In this document: positions 1 to 64,000 of the stretch, piece after piece
How positions within the stretch are numbered: the stretch's first letter is position 1
Layout of the letters: each line of letters starts with the position of its first letter
Assembly (NCBI RefSeq): GCF_003334305.1
Contig: NZ_QOWS01000004.1
DNA: 64,000 bases
DNA from: Escherichia coli
GTDB taxonomy: Bacteria > Pseudomonadota > Gammaproteobacteria > Enterobacterales > Enterobacteriaceae
Strand: one strand, 5' to 3'
Notes under the pieces: model-generated
Told to the model about the DNA's origin: nothing
The model's input: only the letters and a program-made list of their open reading frames with translations
Database searches by the model: none
Program-made: the position numbers and the translations under genes

Positions 1-68
1 CGGGAGGATTCGAACCTCCGACCGCTCGGTTCGTAGCCGAGTACTCTATCCAGCTGAGCTACGGATGC
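1..68 (-). tRNA. argY: tRNA-Arg (anticodon ACG), 3' end cut by window edge
   Basis: Reverse complement reads GCATCCGTAGCTCAGCTGGATAGAGTACTCGGCTACGAACCGAGCGGTCGGAGGTTCGAATCCTCCCG, identical to the full copy at 266-342; symbol assigned by position in the K-12 serV-argV-argY-argZ-argQ cluster. Confidence 0.9.
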
Positions 69-132
69 ATCGGGAAACTTACTTTACTGCAGATTTTTTG
101 ATACCGCTACTAAAGCCGTATCAAGTAAGAGG

Positions 133-151
133 TGGTGCATCCGGGAGGATT
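133..151 (-). other. 19-nt fragment identical to the 3' end (acceptor/T-arm plus CCA) of tRNA-Arg, inside the inter-tRNA spacer
   Basis: tggtgcatccgggaggatt matches the first 19 nt of the tRNA copies at 266 and at window start, then diverges. Confidence 0.6.
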
Positions 152-265
152 ACTCGCCTTGCGGCTCGCCCTTCGGGCCGTTGCTAAAGCAACGTTATCC
201 TCCCTGGTGCCTGCGGTTATACCGCCACCTCTTCCATACCTTCATCGCTGAAAGTACGTAGAATA

Positions 266-342
266 TGGTGCATCCGGGAGGATTCGAACCTCCGACCGCT
301 CGGTTCGTAGCCGAGTACTCTATCCAGCTGAGCTACGGATGC
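266..342 (-). tRNA. argV: tRNA-Arg (anticodon ACG), complete 77 nt with encoded CCA
   Basis: Reverse complement gives canonical cloverleaf GCATCCGTAGCTCAGCTGGATAGAGTACTCGGCTACGAACCGAGCGGTCGGAGGTTCGAATCCTCCCGGATGCACCA. Confidence 0.95.
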
Positions 343-345
343 AAA

Positions 346-438
346 TGGCGGTGAGGCGGGGATTCGAACCCCGGATGCAGCTTTTGACCGCATACTCCCT
401 TAGCAGGGGAGCGCCTTCAGCCTCTCGGCCACCTCACC
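346..438 (-). tRNA. serV: tRNA-Ser (anticodon GCU), 93 nt with long variable arm
   Basis: Reverse complement GGTGAGGTGGCCGAGAGGCTGAAGGCGCTCCCCTGCTAAGGGAGTATGCGGTCAAAAGCTGCATCCGGGGTTCGAATCCCCGCCTCACCGCCA; 3 nt from argV. Confidence 0.95.
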
Positions 439-753
439 ACACGCCTCTTACGAGTGCTTCGAAGAACTTGTTTATCGCTCATCGTCGCTGCGTGGCGCAC
501 ATATTACTTTCTGAGACTTATAAGTCAAACAATTTTTCCTACACTTTTATCGTTTGCACACTTCACGTTCAATTAGTCTGTAAAAACGTCAAAAAGAGTG
601 TTTTATCAACAGAAAAATGGAGGTCTGACAGATAGTAGTAATGCAAAAAAATGGAGACTTAAGTTGAATGAACGGGAGTAAAGCGAAAAGACTATAGAGT
701 GAAGGAGAAATTTTGAGGGTGCGTCTCACCGATAAAGATGAGACGCGGAAAGA

Positions 754-939
754 TTAGTAACTGGACTGCTGGGATTTTTCAGCCTGGATACGCTGGTAGA
801 TCTCTTCACGGTGAACAGAAACTTCCTTCGGGGCATTTACGCCAATACGTACCTGGTTGCCCTTTACCCCTAAAACTGTCACGGTGACCTCATCCCCAAT
901 CATGAGGGTCTCACCAACTCGACGAGTCAGAATCAGCAT
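754..939 (-). CDS. csrA: Carbon storage regulator CsrA (RNA-binding global regulator)
   Basis: ORF track 61 aa, [48 protein letters not shown], full-length CsrA. Confidence 0.97.
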
Positions 940-1173
940 TCTTTGCTCCTTGAAAGATTAAAAGAGTCGGGTCTCTCTGTATCCCGGCATTATCCATCAT
1001 ATAACGCCAAAAAGTAAGCAATGACAAACACATTACATGTAAGCAGTCATGGCATTACATTCTGTTAAACCTAAGTTTAGCCGATATACACAACTTCAAC
1101 CTGACTTTATCGTTGTCGATAGCGTTAATGCGAATGCCGTGAAGCGAGTCCACGGCATTGCCTGACGCTTATA

Positions 1174-3804
1174 TTATTGCAATTTCGCGCTGACCCAGCC
1201 TTTCACACTGGCTAACGCTGCAGGTAAGGCCGCAGCATCCGTACCACCGGCTTGCGCCATGTCAGGACGTCCACCACCCTTGCCGCCCACCTGCTGAGCG
1301 ACCATACCAATCAGTTCCCCTGCTTTCACACGATCTGTGACGTCCTTAGATACGCCTGCAATCAGAGAAACCTTACCTTCGGCTACCGTTGCCAGCACGA
1401 TAATTGTCGACCCCAGCTGATTTTTTAAATCGTCAACCATGGTACGCAACATTTTCGGCTCAACACCGCTAAGCTCGCTAACCAACAGCTTAACACCATT
1501 AACATCAATTGCCTTACTGGAAAGATTTGCGCTCTCCTGTGCGGCAGCTTGTTCTTTAAGCTGTTGTAGTTCTTTTTCTAACTGACGCGTACGTTCCAGT
1601 ACTGAGCGCACTTTATCCGCCAGATTATTGCTATCGCCTTTCAGCAGATGCGCGACTTCGCTTAAGCGATCGCTGTCTGCATGAACGGTGGTGATAGCGC
1701 CTTCTCCGGTTACCGCTTCGATACGACGAACGCCTGCAGCAGTACCCGATTCAGAGATGATGCGGAACAGACCAATATCACCAGTGCGGCTGGCGTGAGT
1801 ACCGCCACACAGCTCGGTGGAGAAATCGCCCATGCTCAGCACGCGTACACGCTCATCATACTTCTCGCCGAACAGCGCCATCGCACCTTTCGCTTTCGCC
1901 GCTTCGAGATCCATGATGTTGGTTTCGATCGGCAAATTGCGACGAATCTGTGCGTTCACCAGGTCTTCGACCGCACGAATCTCTTCCGGTTTCATCGCTT
2001 CGTTGTGTGAGAAGTCGAAGCGCAGCACCTTGTCGTTAACCAGTGAACCTTTCTGCGATACATGAGTCCCCAGAACCTGGCGCAGCGCAGCGTGCATCAG
2101 GTGCGTTGCGGAGTGATTCAGACGAATACGGGCGCGACGAGCCTCATCAACATCAGCCTGCACAGCGTCGCCCACTTTCAGAGAACCCGCAGCAAGTTTA
2201 CCGATGTGACCAATCGCCTGGCCGTATTTCTGCGTATCTTCCACCGCGAAGGAGAAGTTAGCGCCTTTCAGTTCGCCTTTATCACCAACCTGACCGCCGG
2301 ATTCCGCATAGAATGGTGTTTGATCCAGCACGACCACAGCTTCCTGGCCTGCATTGATGGCATCAACCGCTTTACCATCAACAAACAGCGCGGTCACTTT
2401 GCCGTTCAGTTCCAGATGGTCATAGCCTTTAAATTCAGATGCACTATCAACACGGATCATTGCGTTGTAATCGGCACCAAAGCCGCTGGCTTCGCGCGCG
2501 CGACGACGCTGCTCTTCCATTGCTGCTTCAAAACCAGCTTCGTCAACTTTGATGTTGCGCTCACGACAAACATCAGCCGTCAGGTCAACCGGGAAGCCAT
2601 AGGTGTCGTACAGACGGAAAGCCGTTTCACCATCCAGCGTATCACCAGAAAGTTTTGCCAGCTCTTCATCCAGCAACGCCAGACCGCGCTCCAGAGTACG
2701 GGCAAACTGCTCTTCTTCAGTCTTCAGCACCTGCTCAACCTGCGCCTGCTGGCGTTTCAGGTCTTCACCCGCAGAGCCCATAACGTCGATCAGCGGACCA
2801 ACCAGTTTGTAGAAGAAGGTTTCTTTCGCGCCGAGCATATTGCCGTGACGCACTGCGCGACGAATGATACGACGCAGTACATAACCACGGTTTTCATTGG
2901 ACGGCATTACGCCATCCGCGATCAGGAACGCACAAGAACGAATGTGGTCAGCGATTACGCGCAGCGATTTATTGCTCAGATCGGTCGCGCCAGTGACTTT
3001 CGCTACCGCCTGGATCAACGTGCGGAACAGGTCGATGTCATAGTTAGAGTTAACGTGTTGCAGCACCGCAGCAATACGCTCCAGACCCATACCGGTATCT
3101 ACAGACGGCTTCGGCAGCGGTTCCATCGTGCCATCTGCCTGGCGGTTGAACTGCATGAAGACGATGTTCCAGATCTCAATGTAGCGGTCGCCGTCTTCTT
3201 CCGGACTTCCCGGAGGGCCACCCCAAATGTGGTCGCCGTGATCGTAGAAGATTTCGGTGCACGGGCCGCACGGACCAGTGTCACCCATCTGCCAGAAGTT
3301 GTCAGATGCGTATGGCGCACCTTTGTTATCGCCGATGCGAATAATACGTTCGCGCGGGATCCCGACTTCTTTTTCCCAGATTTCGTAGGCTTCGTCGTCG
3401 CTTTCATAGACGGTAACCCACAGACGCTCTTTCGGCAGGGCAAACCATTTTTCGCTGGTCAGCAGTTCCCATGCAAACTGAATGGCATCGTGTTTGAAAT
3501 AGTCGCCGAAGCTGAAGTTGCCCAGCATTTCGAAGAAGGTATGGTGACGCGCGGTGTAACCGACGTTTTCCAGGTCGTTGTGTTTACCACCCGCACGCAC
3601 GCAGCGTTGGGAAGTGGTAGCGCGGGAATAATTACGCTTGTCGAGCCCAAGGAACACATCCTTGAACTGGTTCATCCCGGCGTTGGTAAACAACAAAGTT
3701 GGGTCGTTATGGGGTACCAGGGAGCTGCTGGCAACTACCTGATGTCCCTTACTATGGAAAAAGTCGAGAAACGCCTGACGGATCTCAGCGGTGCTCTTGC
3801 TCAT
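1174..3804 (-). CDS. alaS: Alanine--tRNA ligase
   Basis: ORF track 876 aa, starts [24 protein letters not shown]; class II aaRS; position downstream of recX. Confidence 0.97.
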
Positions 3805-21589: not shown

Positions 21590-24480
<2,891 letters not shown>

Positions 24481-24593: not shown

Positions 24594-25013
24594 TCAAAGA
24601 AACCATTCCGGCTTAACGCCAAATCGGGCTGAAAGTGCCTTAATGTGGGATATTGTCAGGGATCGTTGTCCAGACAAAATCTGACTGACCAGGGATTTAG
24701 AGCCGATTTCGTTCTTCAAATCCGCATAGGTCAGATTATGTTGATCAATCAACGTGCGAAGTAACGCCACGCCAACCGGCATTGCCGCAACGGCTTTGTC
24801 GAACTCTGCAAACTTTTCGTTGTTGTTTTCATACTCTGCAATGCGGCTCGCCAGAAAGTCGATAAGTGGATTGGTGTCATCTTCTTCAATCAAATATTCG
24901 ACCAGTTCCAGTGCTTCACGATAATCATCTTCTGAGTCACTGCCTCCCAGAAAGGGGACTGCATTGACCAGTTCTCTTGTTGCTTTAACAGCGCGTGCAG
25001 CATTAGCAGTCAT
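24594..25013 (-). CDS. HigA-family antitoxin-like HTH (Xre/Cro-type) protein, no adjacent toxin gene
   Basis: ORF track 24594..25079 (TTG start); ATG at 25011-25013 gives 140 aa MTANAARAVKATRELVNAVPFLGG...GSKSLVSQILSGQRSLTISHIKALSARFGVKPEWFL; by eye about half the residues match my recollection of E. coli HigA (YgjM). Confidence 0.7.
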   Translation of the reverse strand: MTANAARAVKATRELVNAVPFLGGSDSEDDYREALELVEYLIEEDDTNPLIDFLASRIAEYENNNEKFAEFDKAVAAMPVGVALLRTLIDQHNLTYADLKNEIGSKSLVSQILSGQRSLTISHIKALSARFGVKPEWFL

Positions 25014-25032
25014 TCTTTGTTCTCTCTGTAGT

Positions 25033-25055
25033 AACGTGACGTCTGTCTGCACGTA
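25033..25055. promoter_or_regulatory. Inverted repeat ACGTG-N11-CACGT upstream of the HigA-like gene (candidate autoregulatory operator)
   Basis: aacgtgacgtctgtctgcacgtaa between the ORF B stop and the HigA-like ATG. Confidence 0.35.
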
Positions 25056-25083
25056 ATCCCCCTCATAGCCACTCTGCAAAAAG

Positions 25084-25857
25084 TCAGTTCTGGTTCACCC
25101 CATAAAGCACATCCCCCTTTATCAAGCAACGCTGCGTCTGCGCCAGATCTTCCGTTTGCGGGTCGCGCCCGGCGATGGGTTTGAGGACGAGTTTACGGTT
25201 GGGGGTATAAGTAAAACGCGTGAGCGCGGGATAGCTTAACTTGCCAAACCAGCCGTGAACACGCTGCCATTTGGCGTCTTTTACCTGATACAGACTGGTT
25301 ATCCAGTAACCAGAATTAAACTGCATATCCAGCAATTGCGTGTGACCATTGCCTTGCAAATCCAGCAAATCATCTACGCCAGTTTTGCTTGCGGTGTAGA
25401 ATCCCCTGGGTTCAAAGACACAGGGACGGCCTTCGCGCGTGAACGTCATAAGAATTAAATGTGCATAAGGAGCCAGACCATTACCGGTACTTGGTAACCA
25501 GATAACCAGATCCTGAATGCCGTTACGATCAAGATCGGCGCGATAGAGTTGCCCTTTGCCCGCTATGTTTGCCAGCATACCCACAGGCACAGACCAGGAT
25601 TTACCGGCGCGATCTTTACCGTTCAATTGCCATTCACTATCATCATTTGGCATCTTTTCAAGCGTCACGCCAGCAACGCCCACTTTTCTAAAATGCCAGG
25701 TTTGCTCGGCATCATAAGGCATGGTCAGGAGAGGTTTCAGCGCCCGCTTTTGCGCGTATTCGCTGTCACTCATTGGCAGATATTCGGTAAAGCTGGTGGC
25801 CTGTGCAGGCAGCACTAAGCTCAATAAAAAAGCGCACATCCCTGTTCTGATATTCAT
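25084..25857 (-). CDS. Sec-exported protein of unknown function with two DxDxNG-like (FG-GAP/calcium-loop-like) motifs
   Basis: ORF track 257 aa; signal peptide MNIRTGMCAFLLSLVLPAQA|TS; motifs ADLDRNGIQDLVIW and DDLLDLQGNGHTQLL; ATG 24 nt downstream of hycI stop, same strand. Confidence 0.65.
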   Translation of the reverse strand: MNIRTGMCAFLLSLVLPAQATSFTEYLPMSDSEYAQKRALKPLLTMPYDAEQTWHFRKVGVAGVTLEKMPNDDSEWQLNGKDRAGKSWSVPVGMLANIAGKGQLYRADLDRNGIQDLVIWLPSTGNGLAPYAHLILMTFTREGRPCVFEPRGFYTASKTGVDDLLDLQGNGHTQLLDMQFNSGYWITSLYQVKDAKWQRVHGWFGKLSYPALTRFTYTPNRKLVLKPIAGRDPQTEDLAQTQRCLIKGDVLYGVNQN

Positions 25858-45647: not shown

Positions 45648-46906
45648 TCAAGATTGGCGTTATCGCCGATGATTTTACCGGCGCGACGGATATCGCCAGT
45701 TTTCTGGTGGAAAACGGTCTACCAACGGTACAAATTAACGGTGTTCCAACAGGTAAAATGCCGGAAGCAATCGACGCACTGGTGATCAGCCTGAAAACGC
45801 GCTCCTGTCCGGTGGTTGAAGCCACACAGCAATCGCTGGCGGCTCTGAGCTGGTTGCAACAGCAAGGTTGCAAACAGATCTATTTCAAATACTGCTCTAC
45901 TTTCGACAGTACGGCGAAAGGTAATATCGGCCCGGTTACCGATGCATTAATGGATGCTCTCGACACGCCGTTTACGGTCTTCTCTCCGGCCCTGCCGGTC
46001 AACGGACGTACGGTTTATCAGGGGTATTTGTTCGTAATGAATCAACTGCTGGCCGAATCCGGGATGCGCCATCACCCGGTAAATCCCATGACCGACAGCT
46101 ATCTTCCCCGTCTGGTTGAAGCGCAATCCACAGGGCGCTGCGGCGTCGTTTCGGCACATGTTTTCGAACAAGGTGTGGATGCCGTTCGTCAAGAGCTGGC
46201 TCGCTTACAGCAAGAGGGCTACCGCTACGCGGTGCTTGATGCGCTGACCGAACACCATCTGGAAATTCAGGGAGAAGCCTTGCGCGATGCCCCACTGGTA
46301 ACGGGTGGTTCTGGTCTGGCGATTGGCCTGGCCCGGCAGTGGGCGCAAGAAAACGGTAACCAGGCTCGCGAAGCAGGGCGTCCGCTCGCTGGGCGCGGCG
46401 TAGTGCTCTCCGGTTCATGCTCTCAAATGACCAACCGCCAGGTGGCACATTACCGTCAAATTGCACCAGCCCGTGAAGTTGATGTGGCACGCTGCCTCTC
46501 AACCGAAACTCTGGCCGCTTATGCACACGAACTGGCAGAGTGGGTTCTGGGCCAGGAAAGTGTACTTGCTCCACTGGTTTTTGCCACCGCCAGCACTGAC
46601 GCATTGGCAGCAATTCAACAGCAATACGGTGCACAAAAAGCCAGTCAGGCAGTAGAAACTCTATTTTCTAAACTAGCGGCGCGGTTAGCAGCGGAAGGCG
46701 TGACACGCTTTATTGTCGCAGGCGGTGAGACCTCCGGCGTAGTCACACAGAGCCTGGGCATAAAAGGGTTTCATATTGGCCCAACCATTTCTCCCGGCGT
46801 GCCGTGGGTAAACGCACTGGATAAGCCTGTCTCACTCGCCCTTAAATCTGGCAACTTCGGTGATGAAGCCTTTTTTTCACGAGCCCAAAGAGAGTTTTTA
46901 TCATGA
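45644..46906 (+). CDS. ygbK: 3-oxo-tetronate kinase (DUF1537 four-carbon acid sugar kinase family)
   Basis: ORF track 420 aa MIKIGVIADDFTGATDIASFL; overlaps ygbJ stop. Confidence 0.88.
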   Translation: MIKIGVIADDFTGATDIASFLVENGLPTVQINGVPTGKMPEAIDALVISLKTRSCPVVEATQQSLAALSWLQQQGCKQIYFKYCSTFDSTAKGNIGPVTDALMDALDTPFTVFSPALPVNGRTVYQGYLFVMNQLLAESGMRHHPVNPMTDSYLPRLVEAQSTGRCGVVSAHVFEQGVDAVRQELARLQQEGYRYAVLDALTEHHLEIQGEALRDAPLVTGGSGLAIGLARQWAQENGNQAREAGRPLAGRGVVLSGSCSQMTNRQVAHYRQIAPAREVDVARCLSTETLAAYAHELAEWVLGQESVLAPLVFATASTDALAAIQQQYGAQKASQAVETLFSKLAARLAAEGVTRFIVAGGETSGVVTQSLGIKGFHIGPTISPGVPWVNALDKPVSLALKSGNFGDEAFFSRAQREFLS

Positions 46907-49780: not shown

Positions 49781-49816
49781 ATAAAAAGGTCCGATGGGCA
49801 TCGGACCTTTTATTTA
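49781..49816. terminator. Bidirectional rho-independent terminator shared by convergent ygbN and ecdD
   Basis: ataaaaa-ggtccgatg-ggc-catcggacc-tttttattt: stem flanked by an A-run and a T-run. Confidence 0.8.
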
Positions 49817-50050
49817 ACGCTTACCTTCCACCAGCAGCGGCGGGATGCTCGGCACCATTGGCGCGTCATCAATATCTTTCTGCGTCATGCGGAACGCTTC
49901 GGGATAATGTTCGCGGCTGGTACGGCGCAGCGGTTCGGTATCGCGCCAGGTATAAAGGCAATGCTGGCACTGATATACCGTCCAGACATCTTTCACCGGC
50001 GATTTCGCCATCACTTCAATCTGTTCATCGGCACAACGTGGACAAATCAT
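49814..50050 (-). CDS. ecdD: Small zinc-ribbon subunit of UbiD-family phenolic acid decarboxylase (BsdD/EcdD-like)
   Basis: ORF track 78 aa MICPRCADEQIEVMAKSPVKDVWTVYQCQHCLYTW (CxxC...CxxC); last gene of the UbiX-UbiD-small subunit operon. Confidence 0.75.
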   Translation of the reverse strand: MICPRCADEQIEVMAKSPVKDVWTVYQCQHCLYTWRDTEPLRRTSREHYPEAFRMTQKDIDDAPMVPSIPPLLVEGKR

Positions 50051-50060
50051 CTTCTTCTCC

Positions 50061-51488
50061 TTATTTACGTGCAGCCAGCATAGCGGTCAGTTTTTCAGCC
50101 CAGGCTTTGGTTTCCGGTAAATCCACCACCGGTTGGCTGTAGTGACCACGGTTGTCCGGGGCGACAGGCGTAGTGGCGTCGATAATCAGCTTGTCGGTGA
50201 TCCCCGCAGGGCTTGAGCCTGGATCGAGTTCCAGCACGGACATATTCGGCAACTGCACCAAATCCCCTGCCGGGTTCACTTTCGAGGAGAGCGCCCACAT
50301 CACCTGCGGCAGGTTGAACGGGTCAACGTCTTCATCGACCATAATCACCATCTTCACGTAGCCCAGACCATGCGGCGTGGTCATTGCGCGCAGGCCCACC
50401 GCGCGGGCAAAGCCGCCGTAGCGTTTTTTGGTGGAGATAATCGCCAGCAGGCCATGGGTGTACATGGCGTTTACCGCCTGCACTTCAGGGAACTCGGCTT
50501 TCAGCTGCTGATACAGCGGCACGCAGGTGGCTGGCCCCATCAGGTAGTCGATTTCGGTCCACGGCATACCGAGGTACAGCGATTCGAAAATCGGCCTGGT
50601 GCGGTAAGAGACTTTATCGATGCGCACCACGGTCATGTTACGCCCGCCGGAGTAGTGCCCGGTAAACTCACCGAACGGCCCTTCGATTTCGCGTTTACGG
50701 CTTTCGATAACCCCTTCGAGGATCACTTCTGAACCCCACGGCACATCAAAACCGGTCAGCGGGGCGGTGGCGATCGGGTACGGGCTTTCACGCAGCGCGC
50801 CTGCCATTTCATACTCAGACTGATCGTATTTCAGCGGCGTGGCCCCCATCAGCGTGATGATCGGATCGTTACCGAGCGTGATCGCAATCGGCAGATCTTC
50901 ACCGCGCTCTTCTGCTTTATGCAGATGCAGGGCGATATCGTGCATCGGCACCGGTTGCAGGCCGAGCTTACGCTTGCCCTTCACTTCCATGCGGTAGATG
51001 CCGACGTTCTGCTTGCCGAAGTTATCTGGGTCGAGCGGATCGCGGGAAACCACGCAGGCTTTGTCGAGATAGAAACCGCCATCGCCATCGTTTAAACGAA
51101 ACAGCGGCAGGATATCGAACAGGTTAATCTCTTCGCCATCGACGGTGTTCTGCGCCCAGGCTGGATTGGCGCGGCGCTCCGGGGCAATCGGGAAGTTATC
51201 CCAGCGGCGGATAAACTCATCAATCTGCTTTTTGACCGGGGTGTTTGGTGGCAGGCCAAGGGAAATCGCGTGGTTCTGCCAGGAACCGATGGTATTCATC
51301 GTCACGCGGGCATCGGTAAAGCCGCGAATATTATCAAACCACAGCGCGGGCGCGCCGTCGCCGATACGCCCGGTGGCGTTAGCTGCTGCTGCCAGATCCG
51401 GCTCAGCGTTCACCTCTTCGCTGATTTTCAGTAACTGGCCGTGGTCATCAAGCGCCTGTAAAAAGCTGCGTAAATCATCAAATGCCAT
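50061..51488 (-). CDS. ecdC: UbiD-family (prenyl-FMN-dependent) aromatic acid decarboxylase
   Basis: ORF track 475 aa MAFDDLRSFLQALDDHGQLLKISEEVNAEPDL. Confidence 0.85.
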   Translation of the reverse strand: MAFDDLRSFLQALDDHGQLLKISEEVNAEPDLAAAANATGRIGDGAPALWFDNIRGFTDARVTMNTIGSWQNHAISLGLPPNTPVKKQIDEFIRRWDNFPIAPERRANPAWAQNTVDGEEINLFDILPLFRLNDGDGGFYLDKACVVSRDPLDPDNFGKQNVGIYRMEVKGKRKLGLQPVPMHDIALHLHKAEERGEDLPIAITLGNDPIITLMGATPLKYDQSEYEMAGALRESPYPIATAPLTGFDVPWGSEVILEGVIESRKREIEGPFGEFTGHYSGGRNMTVVRIDKVSYRTRPIFESLYLGMPWTEIDYLMGPATCVPLYQQLKAEFPEVQAVNAMYTHGLLAIISTKKRYGGFARAVGLRAMTTPHGLGYVKMVIMVDEDVDPFNLPQVMWALSSKVNPAGDLVQLPNMSVLELDPGSSPAGITDKLIIDATTPVAPDNRGHYSQPVVDLPETKAWAEKLTAMLAARK

Positions 51489-52081
51489 TATTCATTCTCC
51501 TGAGAAAAATTCCGGGCCTGCGGCAATCCTTGCCAGCGCCTGGCATGGGGATGTTCGAGGCCAAATTTATCCAGCACGCGGGCTACCACATGGTGGACAA
51601 TGTCATCTACCGTTTCGGGATGGTTATAAAAGGCAGGCATCGGCGGCACCATCGCCACGCCCATGCGTGAAAGTGCGAGCATATTTTCGAGATGGATGGT
51701 GCTAAGCGGCATTTCACGCGGCACCAGCACCAGTTTGCGGCCTTCTTTGAGCACGACGTCCGCCGCGCGCCCTACCAGGCCATCGGCGTAACCAGCGCGG
51801 ATACCGGCGAGCGTTTTCATACTGCACGGAATAACGATCATGCCGTCGGTACGAAAAGAACCGGATGAGATGATCGCCGCCTGATCCGCCGGGTTATGGC
51901 TGAAGTCTGCGAGGGCAGCAACATCGCGAGCGCTGTAAGGCGTTTCCAGTTCAATGGTGGTTTTCGCCCACTTCGACATCACCAGATGAGTCTCGACATT
52001 CGGCATCTCCCGCAGCGCTTGCAGTAATGCCACACCAAGAGGCGCACCGGTAGCCCCTGTCATCCCGACGATCAGTTTCAT
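51488..52081 (-). CDS. ecdB: UbiX/Pad1-family flavin prenyltransferase
   Basis: ORF track 197 aa MKLIVGMTGATGAPLGVALLQAL; stop overlaps the ecdC start. Confidence 0.85.
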   Translation of the reverse strand: MKLIVGMTGATGAPLGVALLQALREMPNVETHLVMSKWAKTTIELETPYSARDVAALADFSHNPADQAAIISSGSFRTDGMIVIPCSMKTLAGIRAGYADGLVGRAADVVLKEGRKLVLVPREMPLSTIHLENMLALSRMGVAMVPPMPAFYNHPETVDDIVHHVVARVLDKFGLEHPHARRWQGLPQARNFSQENE

Positions 52082-52227
52082 TGCTTATCCTCTTAATTGT
52101 TCGTATACGAACATTATTATTAACATACTCCTTCATTTCCACAGCGGCAAGGATTGAAAAGTAACAACATCTTCTTCGTCACTAAAAAACCGCTATGATA
52201 GCGACAGAGAATTAGCCCGGAGTTTAC

Positions 52228-52635
52228 ATGGCGTTACGAAATAAAGCGTTCCATCAGTTACGACAGCTTTTTCAGCAGCACACGGCTCGCTGGCAGCACG
52301 AGTTACCTGACCTGACCAAACCACAGTACGCGGTGATGCGCGCCATTGCTGATAAACCTGGTATCGAACAGGTGGCACTGATAGAAGCAGCTGTCAGCAC
52401 CAAAGCAACGTTAGCAGAAATGTTGGCAAGAATGGAAAATCGTGGCTTAGTCAGACGTGAACATGACCCCGCTGATAAGCGGCGACGCTTTGTCTGGTTG
52501 ACTGCCGAAGGCGAAAAGATACTTGCTGCGGCGATACCCATTGGTGACAGCGTGGATGAGGAATTTTTGGGGCGTTTGAGTGGAGAAGAGCAGGAGCTGT
52601 TTATGCAGCTGGTGCGCAAGATGATGAACGCATAG
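52228..52635 (+). CDS. hosA: MarR/SlyA-family transcriptional regulator
   Basis: ORF track 135 aa; winged-helix region QYAVMRAIADKPGIEQVALIEAAVSTKATLAEMLARMENRGLVRR; divergent from ecdBCD. Confidence 0.8.
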   Translation: MALRNKAFHQLRQLFQQHTARWQHELPDLTKPQYAVMRAIADKPGIEQVALIEAAVSTKATLAEMLARMENRGLVRREHDPADKRRRFVWLTAEGEKILAAAIPIGDSVDEEFLGRLSGEEQELFMQLVRKMMNA

Positions 52636-62777: not shown

Positions 62778-63815
62778 ATGTTTTCCGCATTGCGCCACCG
62801 TACCGCTGCCCTGGCGCTCGGCGTATGCTTTATTCTCCCCGTACACGCCTCGTCACCTAAACCTGGCGATTTTGCTAATACCCAGGCACGACATATTGCT
62901 ACTTTCTTTCCGGGACGCATGACCGGAACTCCAGCAGAAATGTTATCTGCCGATTATATTCGCCAACAGTTTCAGCAAATGGGTTATCGCAGTGATATTC
63001 GGACATTTAATAGTCGGTATATTTATACCGCCCGCGATAATCGCAAGAACTGGCATAACGTGACAGGAAGTACGGTGATTGCCGCTCATGAAGGCAAAGC
63101 GCCGCAGCAGATCATCATTATGGCGCATCTGGATACTTACGCCCCGCTGAGCGATGCTGACGCCGATGCCAATCTCGGCGGGCTGACGTTACAAGGAATG
63201 GATGATAACGCCGCAGGTTTAGGTGTCATGCTGGAATTGGCAGAACGCCTGAAAAATACGCCTACCGAGTATGGTATTCGATTTGTGGCGACCAGCGGCG
63301 AAGAGGAAGGGAAATTAGGCGCTGAGAATTTACTCAAGCGGATGAGTGACACCGAAAAGAAAAATACGCTGCTGGTGATTAATCTCGATAACTTAATTGT
63401 TGGCGATAAATTGTATTTCAACAGCGGTGTAAAAACTCCTGAAGCAGTAAGGAAATTAACGCGCGACAGGGCGCTGGCAATTGCGCGCAGTCACGGAATA
63501 GCCGCAACGACCAACCCGGGTTTGAATAAAAATTATCCGAAAGGCACTGGGTGTTGTAATGACGCAGAAATATTCGACAAAGCGGGCATTGCTGTACTTT
63601 CGGTGGAAGCGACTAACTGGAATCTTGGGAATAAGGATGGTTATCAGCAACGCGCAAAAACACCTGCCTTCCCGGCGGGAAATAGCTGGAATGACGTAAG
63701 ACTGGATAATCAACAACATATTGATAAGGCACTTCCTGGAAGAATAGAACGTCGCTGCCGTGACGTTATGCGGATAATGCTACCGTTGGTGAAGGAGCTG
63801 GCGAAGGCGTCTTGA
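62778..63815 (+). CDS. iap: Alkaline phosphatase isozyme conversion aminopeptidase (M28 family)
   Basis: ORF track 345 aa with signal peptide MFSALRHRTAALALGVCFILPVHA. Confidence 0.93.
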   Translation: MFSALRHRTAALALGVCFILPVHASSPKPGDFANTQARHIATFFPGRMTGTPAEMLSADYIRQQFQQMGYRSDIRTFNSRYIYTARDNRKNWHNVTGSTVIAAHEGKAPQQIIIMAHLDTYAPLSDADADANLGGLTLQGMDDNAAGLGVMLELAERLKNTPTEYGIRFVATSGEEEGKLGAENLLKRMSDTEKKNTLLVINLDNLIVGDKLYFNSGVKTPEAVRKLTRDRALAIARSHGIAATTNPGLNKNYPKGTGCCNDAEIFDKAGIAVLSVEATNWNLGNKDGYQQRAKTPAFPAGNSWNDVRLDNQQHIDKALPGRIERRCRDVMRIMLPLVKELAKAS

Positions 63816-63835
63816 TGGGTTTGAAAATGGGAGCT

Positions 63836-64000
63836 GGGAGTTCTACCGCAGGGGCGGGGAATTCTAAGTGATATCCATCATCGCATCCAGTGCGCCCGGT
63901 TTATCCCCGCTGGCGCGGGGAACACTCACGCGCTGTTACCCAGTCCCTTTTTTTCAGCGGTTTATCCCCGCTGGCGCGGGGAACACCGCCGCGGACTCAC
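63836..64000. CRISPR. Leader-distal end of a type I-E CRISPR array: degenerate terminal repeat, two 29-nt repeats, 32-nt spacers; runs off the window
   Basis: Repeat cggtttatccccgctggcgcggggaacac at 63897-63925 and 63958-63986; spacers at 63865-63896 and 63926-63957; degenerate copy gggagttctaccgcaggggcggggaattc at 63836-63864 (18/29 match). Confidence 0.93.

Follow-up and report, generated by a model that had tools for sequence, protein, structure and literature searches.

A very probable leader-distal end of an O157:H7-like type I-E CRISPR locus downstream of iap in Escherichia coli

The DNA analysed here, referred to throughout as the window, is a 64,000-nt stretch of Escherichia coli sequence that closes inside a CRISPR array lying immediately downstream of iap. 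The features at this end of the window are as follows, with spacers numbered such that spacer 1 is the oldest.

62778-63815, plus strand: iap, alkaline phosphatase isozyme conversion aminopeptidase, 345 aa; an open reading frame, annotated as iap in E. coli A7
63816-63835, no strand: 20-nt gap from the iap stop to the array, conserved here and in K-12 by alignment
63836-63864, minus strand: degenerate terminal (trailer-end) repeat GGGAGTTCTACCGCAGGGGCGGGGAATTC, 18 of 29 matches to the consensus, hairpin largely lost; homologues in K-12 and O157:H7
63865-63896, minus strand: spacer 1, the oldest spacer and ancestral anchor; TAAGTGATATCCATCATCGCATCCAGTGCGCC on the plus strand
63897-63925, minus strand: regular type I-E repeat of the CRISPR-A variant, exact 29-nt match; GTGTTCCCCGCGCCAGCGGGGATAAACCG in crRNA sense
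63926-63957, minus strand: spacer 2; TCACGCGCTGTTACCCAGTCCCTTTTTTTCAG on the plus strand
63958-63986, minus strand: second regular repeat, the same 29 nt as the copy at 63897-63925
63987-64000, minus strand: first 14 nt of spacer 3, cut by the window end; the complete form in A7 is CGCCGCGGACTCACGAGCAGACCATCACAGAC

The regular 29-nt repeat, CGGTTTATCCCCGCTGGCGCGGGGAACAC on the plus strand, occurs at 63897-63925 and again, exactly, at 63958-63986, giving a period of 61 nt. Further copies with up to three mismatches numbered zero in the 64-kb window and zero in 100 shuffles. The adjacent iap gene, whose TGA stop codon occupies 63813-63815, is identical to its K-12 counterpart at 1024 of 1038 nt; it serves as the landmark flanking the CRISPR-I locus, and its orientation is convergent with transcription of the array.

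The degenerate repeat begins 20 nt after the iap stop codon and differs from the consensus at 11 positions. Its score is not rare in itself, as 12 of 127,944 window positions reach 18/29, and the assignment rests instead on its position: the copy sits exactly one 61-nt period upstream of the first regular repeat, for which p is ~4e-5 at one fixed position. It also aligns with the terminal repeat of the K-12 array, to which it is homologous. The initial annotation, made from the letters of the window, had described two exact 29-nt repeats with 32-nt spacers preceded by an 18/29 degenerate repeat; each of these elements was recovered, the degenerate copy in register, and the two full spacers and one partial spacer that it quoted (63865-63896, 63926-63957 and 63987-64000) were correct.

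The sequence beyond the window end could be read from E. coli A7 (NZ_CP028767.1), an isolate from orangutan faeces. Direct string comparison showed the window to be identical to A7 positions 3654858-3718857 at every one of its 64,000 bases, and the last 25 kb gave a perfect megablast match to the same genome. The A7 array contains 13 regular repeats, all identical, and 13 spacers, all of 32 nt, one of which precedes the regular repeats; in the window and in A7 alike, identical repeats of fixed length thus alternate with unique spacers of fixed length. At the far end of the array, outside the window, is a leader of 96 nt with a GC content of 26%, compared with 53% for the window. After the leader follow, on the minus strand, cas2e-cas1e-cas6e-cas5e-cas7e-casB-casA-cas3, then a Hok/Gef gene and cysH. 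The eight cas open reading frames are free of internal stops, and all eight Cas proteins score above the curated NCBIfam cut-offs (those of the type I-E equivalogs or of the core and HD domains of Cas3), so that the type I-E gene set is present in the byte-identical A7 genome, the cas genes themselves lying beyond the window.

Five relatives, H15, TUM1887, GF47, 05-3629 and O121 RM8352, were fetched with their flanks and are at least 98.6% identical at the iap/array junction. All five have the order iap-array-leader-cas2e, followed by cas1e and more cas genes. Our description of the leader, the cas genes and most of the array, all of which fall outside the window, is drawn from the identical A7 genome and these five close relatives. 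Because the window is identical to A7, whose array continues to a leader and an intact cas operon, the locus is read as a complete type I-E locus and not as an orphan. This agrees with the proposal of the initial annotation that the array is of type I-E with its leader and cas genes beyond the window; the same source had named downstream sequence devoid of repeats and cas genes as the mark of an orphan remnant, and extension into A7 and the five relatives revealed a leader and cas genes in every case.

The evidence leads us to conclude, with a probability of about 0.94, that the window ends in the trailer of the CRISPR2.1 array, its oldest and leader-distal end, at the E. coli CRISPR-I locus (iap-cysH), which belongs to the O157:H7-like type I-E variant with cas-E1/cas-EO genes, CRISPR-A repeats and leader-A. 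The variant can be recognised from the repeat. All repeats of the window and of A7 end in AACAC, the A form, while 12 of the 13 regular repeats of MG1655 end in AACTC, as the initial annotation had stated; ten of the latter have the canonical sequence CGGTTTATCCCCGCTGGCGCGGGGAACTC, one mismatch from the window repeat. This A/T difference is a published marker, CRISPR-A repeats being accompanied by leader-A and cas-EO (E1, O157:H7-type) and CRISPR-T repeats by leader-T and cas-EK (E2, K-12-type) (Diez-Villasenor et al. 2013, PMC3737337; PMC3903273). The acquisition motif is CWT for the CRISPR-A set and CTT for the CRISPR-T set (PMC3737337). The gene sets have been named E1 and E2, with E1 concluded to be ancestral (Almendros et al. 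2014, PMC3903273), and a minor group of strains including K-12 has been proposed to have swapped the E1 module for E2 and to have retained the trailer portion of the original array (PMC3903273). The oldest regular repeat of K-12, CGGTTTATCCCCGCTGATGCGGGGAACAC (locus L002, 2202-2230), is of the A type, ends in AACAC and is the same as the oldest regular repeat of O157:H7 (locus L011, 12033-12061); its presence in an otherwise T-type array fits the published insertion of an E2 module into an older A-type array (PMC3903273). In the collection of complete E. coli genomes the A form of the window is the commoner one, the A-type leader having been detected in 1842 genomes, compared with 1222 for the K-12-type leader (3064 together; approximate counts, dependent on megablast thresholds), and K-12 is the exception.

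The CRISPR I locus of K-12 is the laboratory model of the type I-E system. The first report of CRISPR repeats also came from this locus (Ishino et al. 1987, cited as reference 1 of PMC3737337). The MG1655 array resembles that of the present strain in its iap-adjacent site, its architecture of 29-nt repeats and 32-nt spacers, its homologous degenerate terminal repeat and its oldest spacer, apart from the first base of the latter. The two loci differ, however, in features that define the K-12 type (E2/cas-EK, CRISPR-T): K-12 has AACTC repeats and cas-E2/cas-EK genes, whereas the present strain has AACAC repeats and cas-E1; the K-12 leader is clearly divergent from that of A7; and the Cas6e, Cas5e, Cas7e, CasB, CasA and Cas3 proteins of K-12 and A7 are only 22-37% identical, compared with 84-86% for Cas1 and Cas2. 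The A7 CasA and Cas3 proteins fall below the cut-offs of the equivalog models PRK09693 and PRK09694. Averaged over the cas genes, GC is 45.6% in K-12, equal to the published E2 figure, and 51.4% in A7. The acquisition motif differs likewise, being CTT in K-12 and CWT for the present variant (PMC3737337).

The likeness to O157:H7 (arrangement A; PMC3737337, PMC3903273) extends to the iap-cysH site, the 29-nt repeat with A as its penultimate base, the degenerate terminal repeat and the oldest spacer. The Cas proteins of O157:H7 and A7 are 94-100% identical, their leaders are nearly identical, and both strains have hok/sok beside cas3, as in arrangement A (PMC3903273). They differ only in spacer content beyond the oldest spacer and in a few point changes; the first regular repeat, for instance, has GATG in O157:H7 and GGCG in the present strain. 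The hok/sok genes have been reported in all arrangements save those with cas-E2 (PMC3903273). Consistent with this distribution, K-12 lacks hok and has only the sokX small RNA between cas3 and cysH, where A7 has the Hok/Gef gene. This toxin gene lies beyond the window, at 24108-24260 of the A7 locus (L001), and is present in O157:H7 as well.

The locus is an already known, textbook iap-adjacent E. coli CRISPR array, real but ordinary. Beyond correct annotation its importance is small, and its repeat base is a marker already published for E1, the majority (O157:H7-like) variant. Since this one base is enough to predict the accompanying Cascade/Cas3 set and the acquisition motif, what is learned from the K-12 model should be applied to this strain only with care.

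In crRNA sense (window minus strand, GUGUUCCCCGCGCCAGCGGGGAUAAACCG) the regular repeat is predicted to fold into a 7-bp stem with a tetraloop at -15.2 kcal/mol (z = -3.2). A predicted stem-loop in a 29-nt repeat together with spacers that are all 32 nt long is the form found in type I-E arrays. The centroid structure predicted for the K-12 repeat is no different, at -15.1 kcal/mol, and the A/T base falls outside the stem; this base would be position 2 of the repeat in crRNA sense, and the substitution is predicted to leave the fold unchanged. The degenerate repeat, by comparison, has a predicted fold of only -6.4 kcal/mol. The consensus printed in the Introduction of PMC3737337 (…GCTGACGCGGGG…) departs at a single loop position from the canonical form of the repeat in all genomes examined (…GCTGGCGCGGGG…), K-12 and O157:H7 included, which is probably a consensus or typographic matter. 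Comparison with Rfam, which covers curated families only, returned no CRISPR-repeat family at the gathering score or at E<=1. The only match, to Chlorobi-1 RNA at 63942-63987 on the minus strand, was rejected as spurious: it scored 20.3 bits against a gathering score of 50 and arose from the repeat hairpin and the T-run of spacer 2 (an A-run on the minus strand).

Established type I-E biology and the cited papers suggest a model for the working of this locus in which the array would be transcribed from the leader toward iap, on the window minus strand. A pattern scan for sigma-70 promoters and terminators across the A7 array and leader yielded no promoter-like site, nor did it detect a terminator at the iap/array junction; the direction of transcription therefore rests on array polarity and the literature. 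By analogy with characterised type I-E systems, Cas6e would bind the repeat hairpin (CCCCGC-GCCA-GCGGGG) and cut at its 3' base, yielding crRNAs of 61 nt, each expected to comprise the 8-nt 5' handle AUAAACCG, a spacer of 32 nt and, as 3' handle, a hairpin of 21 nt. Cascade loaded with these crRNAs would then find DNA protospacers beside a CWT motif (window plus orientation), and Cas3 would degrade the target. Under the 28-nt duplicon convention, the first C of each repeat (plus orientation) would derive from the protospacer motif (PMC3737337). New spacers would presumably be inserted at the leader end by Cas1-Cas2. In K-12 the system is silenced by H-NS. Spacer 1 is probably not matured into a normal crRNA, as the RNA downstream of it would be the decayed repeat, which lacks a proper hairpin.

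The polarity of the array was examined by comparing spacer content among A7 and four of its relatives. From oldest to newest the spacers are as follows.

A7: 1-13
H15: 1-10, 13
TUM1887: 1-7, 9, 10, 13
GF47: 1-4, a different spacer, 6, 8, 13, and a new spacer at the leader end
05-3629: 1-3, 8-10, 13, and a different new spacer at the leader end

The spacers on the iap side are common to these strains, and the changes consist of internal losses and of additions at the leader side, which is the pattern to be expected of the oldest, or trailer, end. The degenerate repeat lies at the end opposite the AT-rich leader. The initial annotation had taken the degenerate repeat to mark the oldest end of the array, and both the leader-distal position of that repeat and the pattern of shared spacers uphold this view.

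Spacer 1 is far more widespread than its neighbours. Of 5426 complete E. coli genomes, at least 3746 gave a match to it (an approximate count, set by megablast thresholds), among them K-12, where the only difference is C for T at base 1, and the spacer is present in O157:H7. At least one of spacers 2 and 3 was found in 165 genomes. Both were found in 20 of the 5426, and spacer order is usable for strain typing. Set beside the 3064 genomes with a leader of either type, the count for spacer 1 indicates that several hundred genomes appear to keep the terminal unit without a leader. The near-universal retention of spacer 1 is likely best explained by the inability of recombination between intact repeats to delete it.

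A different account of this retention holds that the terminal unit, that is, the degenerate repeat with spacer 1, is kept by selection for a role outside immunity, such as terminating convergent iap and pre-crRNA transcripts or serving as a regulatory RNA, and not by mere resistance to deletion. The presence of the unit in 3746 of 5426 genomes, including genomes in which neither leader type was detected, and its start only 20 nt past the iap stop codon would suit such a role. However, across ~81 nt the unit carries four changes relative to K-12, including a 1-nt indel, and so has diverged more than the neighbouring iap gene (14 of 1038 nt), the opposite of what constraint would give. In addition, the pattern scan found no terminator-like site at the unit, its residual hairpin is weak at -6.4 kcal/mol, and passive retention explains the pattern, as a spacer next to a decayed repeat is out of reach of deletion by recombination between good repeats. 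A non-immune role of the terminal unit is thus very unlikely and without positive support.

The same counts bear on the possibility that the window holds a CRISPR2.1 remnant with no leader or cas genes downstream, a non-functional relic. Such orphans have been described in BL21-type and many other E. coli strains devoid of cas genes; BL21 derivatives have CRISPR-A repeats without a leader or cas genes (PMC3737337), and their orphan array has the same repeat variant and chromosomal position as the array described here. Spacer 1 is found in more genomes than is a leader of either type (3746 against 1842 + 1222 = 3064), and the window itself ends inside the array. By contrast with BL21, A7, which matches the window over its full 64 kb, has the leader and all eight cas genes, and the five close relatives carry the leader, cas2e, cas1e and more cas genes. 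We therefore regard an orphan array in this strain as extremely improbable. That the repeats are not CRISPR at all and represent generic palindromic intergenic repeats (REP/BIME-like) or iap terminators, as a GC-rich palindrome downstream of a gene might suggest, is already refuted by the strict 61-nt period, the unique 32-nt spacers and the recurrence of the repeat 13 times beside a leader and cas operon in A7 and nowhere else in the 64-kb window.

All 13 A7 spacers were compared by word-11 blastn (E<=10) with the phages of INPHARED (50,697 records) and the plasmids of PLSDB (72,556 records), a comparison that the initial annotation had suggested. For spacers 1-3 no credible target was found in either database, and exact scans of IMG/VR with N at every sixth position gave no hits. 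A distant-mode search of complete E. coli genomes with spacers 2 and 3 returned, among the matches listed, only sites that belong to annotated CRISPR arrays or lie at this array locus, with no prophage protospacer among them. A full-text literature search with the three spacer sequences in both orientations found no papers. A match to Pseudomonas phage uligo was rejected, since it spans the artificial junction of spacers 1 and 2, and weak matches to P2-like and Pf integrases around spacer 11 (E 0.1-5) were not accepted, as they run over an artificial junction.

Spacer 4, GCAGACTATAACGAGGGTCGCACGCGGATCAT, which lies beyond the window (L001 14681-14741 region, ~700 nt past the window end), matches at 29 of 32 positions the darB gene of the P1-like phage D6, and the same 29/32 match is found in about a hundred P1-like plasmids; darB is glossed as "defense against restriction". 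The mismatches fall at protospacer positions 6, 18 and 30 from the leader-proximal end, all of which are codon third positions. These are also among what we take to be the every-sixth positions that are left without base pairing in the Cascade structure. The match supports a real phage-plasmid origin for part of the array. The flanking triplet in the D6 and plasmid homologues is AAT or TAT, compared with the expected CAT or CTT; a source with CAT is plausible, because the discrepant base, the first of the triplet, is a codon third position (Ile ATA/ATT/ATC).

Elsewhere in the window, the gap between ascB and hycI contains two genes on the minus strand within 24594-25857, encoding proteins of 139 aa (24594-25013) and 257 aa (25084-25857); in K-12 MG1655 this gap is ~158 nt long and holds no gene. 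An HTH_3 domain is found at the C terminus of the 139-aa protein (Pfam, E=8e-9), and this protein also matches the N-terminal part of PADLOC PD-Lambda-2_B (E=2.4e-14); the 257-aa protein gave no match in Pfam, NCBIfam or PADLOC. The gene pair is a small strain-variable island. Between ygbN and rpoS, at 49814-52635, lie genes for hydroxyarylic acid decarboxylase subunits D, C and B and a MarR-family regulator, which are also found at the O157:H7 locus. Polymorphism is known in the mutS-rpoS interval, and these decarboxylase and MarR genes are presumably absent from K-12. At the opposite end of the window from the array, positions 1-438 carry two tRNA-Arg genes and one tRNA-Ser gene on the minus strand, upstream of csrA, and at 45713-45759 a 24-nt unit is repeated twice (83% matches) inside otnK; both features look ordinary.
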